NCBI GenBank assembly: GCA_041658485.1
Contig: JBBAAE010000004.1
Coordinates: 1 to 58,174, forward strand
Origin: Minisyncoccota bacterium
Lineage (GTDB): Bacteria > Patescibacteriota > Minisyncoccia > Phycocordibacterales > Phycocordibacteraceae
Direction: 5' to 3'
Length of the DNA: 58,174 nucleotides
In this document: positions 10,950 to 11,533 of the stretch, piece by piece
Layout: every line of letters begins with the position of its first letter
Position numbering within the stretch: position 1 is the first letter of the stretch
Position numbers and translations under genes: made by a program
The notes under the pieces: generated by a model
The model's input: only the letters and a program-made list of their open reading frames with translations
What the model was told of the DNA's origin: nothing
The model's database searches: none

Positions 10950-11351
10950 CTAGGATTCCAAAATTACATTTTTTAGGTGCCTTATTTTGGCATTTTTGTT
11001 TTTCTGATCAAGAAAGACCGCAATTACATCAAACTGCCAATCCCCCACTATTTCATGTGAAACAAGGTAAGTTTGTATTACCCGCTTCAGTCTTTGAATC
11101 TTCTGAGGATGAATATTCTCTTCAGGATGAGGCGTTTCATGGGAAACAGAGACATTAGATATGGCTGGTGTTTCCCATGAAACAGTCTTAACCTCAATAA
11201 ATATAAGCTTATTCGAGATGTCCTTGAAGATAAGGTCTATTTCTCCGTATGGTTTACGGTAGTTAGCGGATACAAATATAAATCCTTTTCCTATAAGGAA
11301 TTCTCTGGCTATATCTTCGCCAATTCTCCCTACGATATTATGCTTAGCCAT
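10950..11351 (-). CDS. yraN: YraN (UPF0102) family putative nuclease
   Basis: GRIGEDIAREFL...NYRKPYGEIDLI...FIEVKT...QFDVIAV. Confidence 0.9.
   Translation of the reverse strand: MAKHNIVGRIGEDIAREFLIGKGFIFVSANYRKPYGEIDLIFKDISNKLIFIEVKTVSWETPAISNVSVSHETPHPEENIHPQKIQRLKRVIQTYLVSHEIVGDWQFDVIAVFLDQKNKNAKIRHLKNVILES
11049..11064. promoter_or_regulatory. parS-like site inside yraN
   Basis: TATTTCATGTGAAACA, 2 mismatches to TGTTTCACGTGAAACA. Confidence 0.55.
11133..11184. promoter_or_regulatory. Inverted pair of parS-like sites inside yraN
   Basis: CGTTTCATGGGAAACA (11133-11148) and TGTTTCCCATGAAACA (11169-11184); they encode VSHET and VSWET. Confidence 0.6.
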
Positions 11352-11366
11352 GTTTCACGTGAAACT
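11351..11366. promoter_or_regulatory. parS site touching the yraN start codon
   Basis: TGTTTCACGTGAAACT, 15/16 match to the parS consensus. Confidence 0.85.
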
Positions 11367-11450
11367 ACTTAAACTGTCTTTTACAAAAAACCCTTATTTA
11401 AAAGCATTTAATAGAATCATCAAACATTCACGGACAATGCATTATGTCCT

Positions 11451-11480
11451 TTATACACATAAGGCACAGTGTTATCCACA
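11451..11480 (+). promoter_or_regulatory. Two co-oriented DnaA boxes
   Basis: TTATACACA (11451-11459) and the perfect box TTATCCACA (11472-11480). Confidence 0.55.
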
Positions 11481-11501
11481 AAAACCGTCATAAAGGTCAA
11501 T

Positions 11502-11533
11502 AATTTCACGTGAAACGAGTTTCCTGTGAAATA
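11502..11533. promoter_or_regulatory. Tandem parS-like sites
   Basis: AATTTCACGTGAAACG (intact core) immediately followed by the degenerate AGTTTCCTGTGAAATA. Confidence 0.65.

Follow-up and report, generated by a model that had tools for sequence, protein, structure and literature searches.

We consider it probable that a stretch of 485 bp, which overlaps yraN and the DNA preceding it (11049-11533), is the parS centromere of the chromosome and the loading site of the single canonical, CTP-dependent ParB protein encoded in this genome. Positions refer to the window, by which we mean the whole stretch of DNA analysed (58,174 nt). The source organism is ultra-small and uncultured, and is represented by a landfill MAG. 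What appears to be new here is that a predicted chromosomal parS centromere is packed into a short stretch, shares its bases with a gene, works without ParA and adjoins a DnaA-box pair. Intragenic parS sites are known already, usually as isolated cases. Full-text literature searches yielded no paper linking parS with YraN or UPF0102, and none on parS or ParB in Patescibacteria.

The parS-like sites and their place in the genome

Mismatches were counted against the parS consensus TGTTTCACGTGAAACA, and sites were searched with a cut-off of at most three mismatches. An earlier note on this DNA had described six parS-like 16-mers within 485 bp, and all six were recovered: three are within yraN, one abuts its ATG and two stand in tandem upstream. 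Relative to the palindromic 16-bp consensus TGTTNCACGTGAAACA they have 1, 2, 2, 3, 3 and 4 mismatches. Five palindromic sites pass the cut-off between 11049 and 11517, and the sixth unit (11518-11533) abuts the fifth.

The best match is the proximal upstream site (11351-11366, TGTTTCACGTGAAACT), which has a single mismatch and a CACGTG core, and which overlaps the yraN ATG with its last base (the A). The distal tandem consists of unit 1 (11502-11517, AATTTCACGTGAAACG), with three mismatches and an intact CACGTG core, and unit 2 (11518-11533, AGTTTCCTGTGAAATA), which with four mismatches falls under the search threshold and is kept in the genus alignment. Inside the gene, site A (11169-11184, TGTTTCCCATGAAACA, two mismatches) is translated as VSWET, residues 57-61, right after the catalytic EVKT; site B (11133-11148, CGTTTCATGGGAAACA, three mismatches) as VSHET, residues 69-73; and site C (11049-11064, TATTTCATGTGAAACA, two mismatches), read on the minus strand, as VSHEI, residues 97-101.

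At the same cut-off the window contains 12 strand-hits against 2.2 +/- 1.8 in shuffled sequences, and none of the 100 shuffles reached 12. The genome-wide scan for further parS sites that the earlier note had proposed returned, from the rest of the 959-kb, 50-contig genome, only six scattered singletons with three mismatches each (cut-off as above). Because all other matches in the genome are such singletons, 11049-11533 is its sole parS cluster. A mobile-repeat (REP or MITE-like) origin of the sites was ruled out, since each genome has one cluster, in a syntenic location.

The yraN gene and its product

The gene hosting three of the sites, yraN (10950-11351, minus strand), encodes a PD-(D/E)xK nuclease-like UPF0102 protein of 133 aa, which matches Pfam UPF0102 (PF02021) with an E value of 6.3e-19 and 68.6 bits, the cut-off (gathering score) being 23.6. 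In the YraN alignment G8, G11, E12, D39, E53, V54 and K55 are invariant, and since these include the catalytic residues D39, E53 and K55, yraN is predicted to be still a working gene. The AlphaFold model (pLDDT 86) has a restriction-endonuclease-like fold: among PDB structures it matches the UPF0102 protein 3FOV best (E 1e-6, TM 0.84 on target), and other PD-(D/E)xK nucleases next.

According to the model, VSWET of site A ends the strand bearing E53 and K55, VSHET of site B lies in the only disordered, low-confidence loop (63-72) and VSHEI of site C is at the end of helix 82-98. Two of the internal sites had been described as inverted copies of each other, both falling in the variable loop that follows EVKT. 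The sites at 11133 and 11169 are inverted copies, with 15/16 bases matching; the loop position holds for site B only. Between EVKT and RPEEN the loop measures from 0 to about 40 residues across species. One YraN (locus L047, G038:C36) has four or five VSYET, VTHET or VPHET units (GVSYETSNKVTHET...GVPHETKNKVSYET) in the loop after EVK.

A sigma-70 promoter scan found none on the yraN strand. The search for RNA-seq runs containing the locus found none, and the locus was seen only in the source landfill metagenome and in distant DNA matches. Distances of about 35 kb to dnaA and about 10 kb to comM, given previously, agree with the coordinates of these genes in the window (46194-47540 and 21570-23099, respectively). 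The suggested tie of yraN to comM and transformation is this 10-kb proximity and nothing more.

Codon usage at the intragenic sites

To guard against circularity, codon columns were set from the protein alignment and not from DNA matches; p values are from binomial counts. Among 49 species the V, S, E and T residues of site A are conserved in 43, 43, 36 and 29, respectively. The valine is encoded by GTT in 43/43 (background 30%, p 3e-23), the serine by TCA in 36/43 (84%; background 19%, p 2e-19) and the glutamate by GAA in 36/36 (background 57%, p 2e-9), and the central residue is free (W16, R11, C8, Y7, H4). The same trend is seen in the site B columns (GTT for valine in 22/22, GAA for glutamate in 17/17) and, where it holds valine, in the site C column (GTT in 10/10). 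In the remaining conserved columns of yraN no single codon exceeds 87%, and most are at 30-70%. When one species per family was used (median amino-acid identity 44%), site A had GTT in 18/18, TCA in 12/18 and GAA in 15/15, with the control V and E columns again mixed.

The excess synonymous conservation predicted for the motif was thus found: GTT, TCA and GAA are essentially fixed across the 49 species, the other columns are mixed, and free variation at synonymous sites is not seen in the motif codons. The fixation of synonymous codons in sites whose central residue drifts argues that selection acts on the DNA arms (GTTTC...GAAAC) and that the centre of the site is a compromise with the protein. 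The earlier note had read the stretch as dual-coding DNA in which the centromere shapes the sequence of YraN; this reading is supported, and it is borne out by the fixed codons together with the canonical parB gene in the genome (see below). The two or three mismatches of the intragenic sites are mostly in the central hexamer, and work on ParB/Noc specificity is said to have shown that changes such as CCC for CAC weaken ParB binding; therefore some of the internal parS copies may bind ParB poorly.

Conservation in related genomes

The 61 related genomes that we searched include members of the genus and extend to about 25 families of the order. YraN is present in 49 of them, and a genome-wide parS search of the 61 relatives gave matches almost exclusively at the yraN locus. 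Parallel positions are occupied by parS-like sites in 44/49 oriented yraN loci, with 146 sites in total; their density at the 49 loci is 3.53 per kb, as compared to 0.124 per kb in the flanks. Upstream, most of the 49 loci have a site at about -15 to -66, and a second recurrent position is about -150 to -200. Within the genus alignment the proximal upstream site is conserved as GTTTCACGTGAAAC, the distal site at -150 to -200 occurs in most loci and both tandem units are conserved. The recurrent intragenic positions are +119, +164 to +179, +194 to +203 and +278 to +290, the last being the counterpart of site C, conserved in many relatives. A single reading frame (V-S-x-E-T) is used by 69 of the 72 intragenic sites. 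Upstream sites have on average 1.78 mismatches and intragenic sites 2.54, and the CACGTG core is retained in 72% of the former and 19% of the latter. Some relatives have perfect parS copies at the matching position.

The complete genome of a sister genus, G036, has lost yraN. It has five parS-like sites distributed across cca, xth and xerC, which are syntenic (G036:C1:83900-88700), and the DnaA-box pair with 21-bp spacing (see below) is kept 2 kb from them. That parS and the DnaA-box pair outlast yraN in this genome argues that they are chromosomal cis-elements, not yraN-specific signals. A gene for an HTH protein (85210-85884) lies in G036 between the parS sites and the DnaA-box pair. In some relatives near-perfect parS sites form a further cluster elsewhere than at yraN (G054:C2:125333-126541; G042, contigs C22 and C160).

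Among 185,579 species genomes scanned, EVK-x-V-S-x-E-T with parS codons occurs at at least 119 loci. Among the 119 matches listed, about 70 are YraN genes, all from Patescibacteria MAGs labelled Parcubacteria, Paceibacteria, Nomura-, Kaiser-, Yonath- or Campbellbacteria, and many of the listed YraN matches have a second site about 9 residues on. The other listed matches, about 50 of the 119, are not YraN and were discarded as chance or unrelated, e.g. the EVKGVSEETTTG motif of Pelagibacter S-adenosylhomocysteine hydrolase; stray parS sites in Halomonas among the listed matches were discarded likewise. In a phylum-wide search of 400 genomes the exact dual-coding pattern, which misses some site-bearing genomes of the same order, was found in this genome only. 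All that this search indicates is that the exact form of site A is not shared by the phylum at large.

Of 29 yraN loci examined in other orders of the class, nine have parS in the gene or up to 450 bp upstream of it. Intragenic sites occur in just one of the nine, and YraN of these orders reads EVKTR. In a likely history, parS sites were arrayed upstream of yraN early in the class, and the coding sequence was invaded later, in this order. The sequences also suggest that the YraN loop may have grown through in-frame parS duplication.

ParB, ParA and SMC

The genome does not lack parB: it encodes a single ParB of 320 aa, on another contig (G000:C2), which matches PF02195 with 1.8e-28 and has as its best PDB match 7BNK, the Myxococcus ParB with CTP (9e-45). 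The motifs GERRLRA and ENLQR and the helix-turn-helix are intact. ParB is present in 59/61 relatives, and in the complete genomes its gene is hundreds of kb from parS. Of the parAB pair to be located according to the earlier note, only this half was found. The genome has no match to the ParA profile (Pfam AAA_31, PF13614), and the 61 relatives give two weak matches confined to the P-loop. Because the same profile was positive in 14/14 control genomes, the predicted partition system is ParB-parS only, without ParA, the third component of ParABS.

The open frame of the sole SMC-like gene (G000:C9:31567-33714, minus strand, loci L169 and L170) is about 726 aa long. Compared with TIGR02168, the two halves of the head match (positions 2-323 and 879-1181) and roughly 550 positions, coiled coil and hinge, are unmatched. 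The protein may be a drastically shortened SMC.

DnaA boxes and GC skew

Between the upstream parS-like sites sit two DnaA boxes, both oriented along the minus strand and 21 bp apart (11451-11459, TTATACACA; 11472-11480, TTATCCACA). At least one DnaA box, usually a pair, occurs in the 400 bp upstream of yraN in 48/49 loci, which corresponds to a density of 4.5 per kb vs 0.24 per kb elsewhere. The pair with 21-bp spacing is unique genome-wide in G000, G013 and G036. There are only two boxes at the locus, fewer than in typical origins; clusters of four or more boxes were found nowhere in G013. About 90 bp of AT-rich DNA separates DnaA box 2 from the proximal parS site. A palindrome read from the sequence, GGACA-N8-TGTCC (11432-11449), directly adjoins box 2 and may be a site for a further factor. 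The sequence AAGGACA after the DnaA box is conserved across the genus, and TGTCCT is found again at about 11575.

In the window the cumulative GC skew has its minimum at 12,258, where gene orientation switches. In six genomes of the genus the distance from dnaA to yraN/parS is 31-39 kb. Three complete relatives allow the skew to be followed over the whole chromosome. In G025 the minimum (205,693) falls inside the parS cluster (205,499-205,880), and dnaA, 34 kb away, falls outside the stretch where the skew stays within 3% of its amplitude from the minimum. In G013 the minimum is at 139,161, 750 bp from the start of parS at 139,909; dnaA is at 104-105 kb, and the skew is flat between dnaA and parS. 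In G036 the minimum (127,801) is about 40 kb off parS (86-88.6 kb), with dnaA (111 kb) on the plateau. The skew minimum is thus less than 1 kb from the parS cluster in two of the three complete relatives (G013 and G025), not in G036. The dnaA match of G025 (G025:C1:171841-172269) contains an in-frame TAA, with an open frame of only 265 aa; the interruption could be a sequencing error, or the gene could be split or a pseudogene.

There is a nearly even chance, perhaps slightly less, that the replication origin is at the yraN/parS locus and not at dnaA: a conserved DnaA-box pair adjoins the sites and the skew minimum coincides in two of three relatives. The assignment is not secure because the minimum of G036 is about 40 kb off and the skew of G013 is flat from dnaA to parS.

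Discussion

In the explanation that we favour, the two upstream units with CACGTG core are most likely the strong nucleation sites, and the three intragenic copies would be weaker variants, all read V-S-x-E-T. The same bases would serve as ParB half-sites (GTTTC...GAAAC) and as codons, and would be held by selection at the DNA level. ParB loaded at the cluster probably works without a ParA motor: its sliding-clamp partition complex would organise the origin region and recruit the SMC-like protein, in the way known from Streptococcus pneumoniae, which likewise lacks ParA. The cluster is most likely part of the replication origin or directly beside it, because it brackets the DnaA-box pair and lies at the skew minimum in complete relatives. 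ParB binding at the individual sites, SMC recruitment, firing of the origin here and any repression of yraN are steps that we infer.

It could be argued that only the upstream, non-coding sites are functional parS, and that the intragenic copies are decaying duplicates, lodged in tolerant loops of YraN and of no useful ParB binding. The greater degeneracy of the intragenic sites (2.54 vs 1.78 mismatches, CACGTG in 19%) would fit such a view, as would their structurally tolerant places in YraN and the wide variation of loop length and copy number between species. However, relics would not be expected to hold GTT, TCA and GAA at about 44% amino-acid identity, nor to keep matching codons in some 25 families, and outer arms that are held around a drifting centre are what a weakened yet selected site would look like; we therefore regard decay as unlikely. 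Hardly any credence can be given to the idea that VSxET has been retained as a protein motif that YraN needs in order to function, its likeness to parS coming from codon bias. The V, S, E and T residues are well conserved at site A (43, 43, 36 and 29 of 49), but the codon counts reject this explanation: GTT, TCA and GAA are used there at 100%, 84% and 100% against a background of 30%, 19% and 57%, and conserved V and E columns elsewhere in yraN use mixed codons. Moreover, the central residue (W, R, C, Y or H) is chemically unconstrained, the same 16-mer is present also in non-coding upstream DNA, and YraN of other orders has EVKTR instead of VSxET.

The palindromes could also be operators of another DNA-binding protein, for instance one that regulates yraN or binds the origin; the likeness to parS would then be convergent or co-opted. 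The sites overlap the yraN start and the likely promoter region, the second conserved palindrome (GGACA-N8-TGTCC) and the DnaA boxes point to other binders, and parB is hundreds of kb away. On the other hand, the consensus is exactly the universal 16-mer of parS, with perfect copies in relatives, the genome encodes a canonical ParB with intact helix-turn-helix, and the arrangement of one cluster per genome near the skew minimum is centromere-like. No candidate for an alternative binder was identified, and we think it very improbable that the sites belong to such a protein.

It is instructive to compare the locus with known partition systems. In Bacillus subtilis, Spo0J/ParB reportedly binds parS sites one of which is inside spo0J (Lin and Grossman, 1998; Breier and Grossman, 2007). 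The two systems share the 16-bp consensus, the origin-proximal and in part intragenic position of the sites, the tolerance of one or two mismatches, and a canonical ParB with helix-turn-helix domain and N-terminal CTPase domain. The B. subtilis sites, however, are single, scattered over several hundred kb and in unrelated genes, whereas here three to six sites lie within and around one 400-bp gene, at matching codons across an order and under measurable synonymous constraint, in a lineage without ParA/Soj. Streptococcus pneumoniae, which according to Minnen et al. (2011) reportedly has ParB, parS and SMC without ParA, resembles the present case in its ParB, its origin-proximal parS, its SMC-type protein and the lack of a ParA ATPase. 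It differs in that the pneumococcal parS sites are few and form no array in one gene, and that the SMC-like protein is unusually short here (about 726 aa). The role proposed for pneumococcal ParB is to load SMC and organise the origin.

Dense origin-proximal parS sites are present in Myxococcus xanthus (about 24), in Corynebacterium glutamicum (10) and in Caulobacter crescentus, where they form a cluster near parAB. As in these species, several parS copies are clustered here, presumably for one partition complex near the origin, but the arrays of M. xanthus, C. glutamicum and C. crescentus accompany parAB, work with ParA and are not tied to yraN. To our knowledge, none of them is a conserved in-frame coding element of one gene. 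On chromosome 2 of Vibrio cholerae, ParB2 is said to modulate RctB-dependent initiation through parS2-B (Venkova-Canova et al., 2013). There, too, parS is in or next to the origin (a putative one in our case), and ParB and the initiator would meet on the same few hundred bp. The V. cholerae chromosome 2 uses the plasmid-like RctB and its own ParAB2, whereas here a DnaA-box pair is beside parS and the origin is a predicted one.

If our interpretation is correct, a whole centromere array is held in and around one 400-bp gene across a bacterial order, and selection on codons at the DNA level can be measured directly. The locus would offer a clean natural overlap of a protein code and a centromere code, in which the centre of a ParB site drifts while its arms stay selected. 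It also suggests the chromosome-segregation hardware of the unculturable Patescibacteria (CPR): ParB only, no ParA and an unusually short SMC-like protein. The DnaA-box pair and the skew minimum provide a concrete oriC candidate in these genomes, away from dnaA, and the combination of yraN, parS and the DnaA-box pair could serve as a practical marker to orient and check CPR genome assemblies.

A further step, which we offer tentatively and hold somewhat less probable than its opposite, is that the yraN upstream region is the actual origin in this Paceibacteria order. It would comprise the DnaA-box pair, the AT-rich spacer and the bracketing parS sites, which have spread in frame into yraN, in a compact origin-plus-centromere module about 35 kb from dnaA, and a ParA-less ParB clamp, DnaA and the yraN promoter would share roughly 200 bp. 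Should this be true, initiation, SMC loading and the expression of a DNA-processing nuclease would be mechanically coupled.

The neighbouring part of the window (12273-15868) contains genes for a CCA-adding enzyme, an exonuclease III-like Exo_endo_phos protein and a XerC/D-type recombinase, a block syntenic with G036. The presence of a Xer recombinase gene beside a likely origin is unusual.
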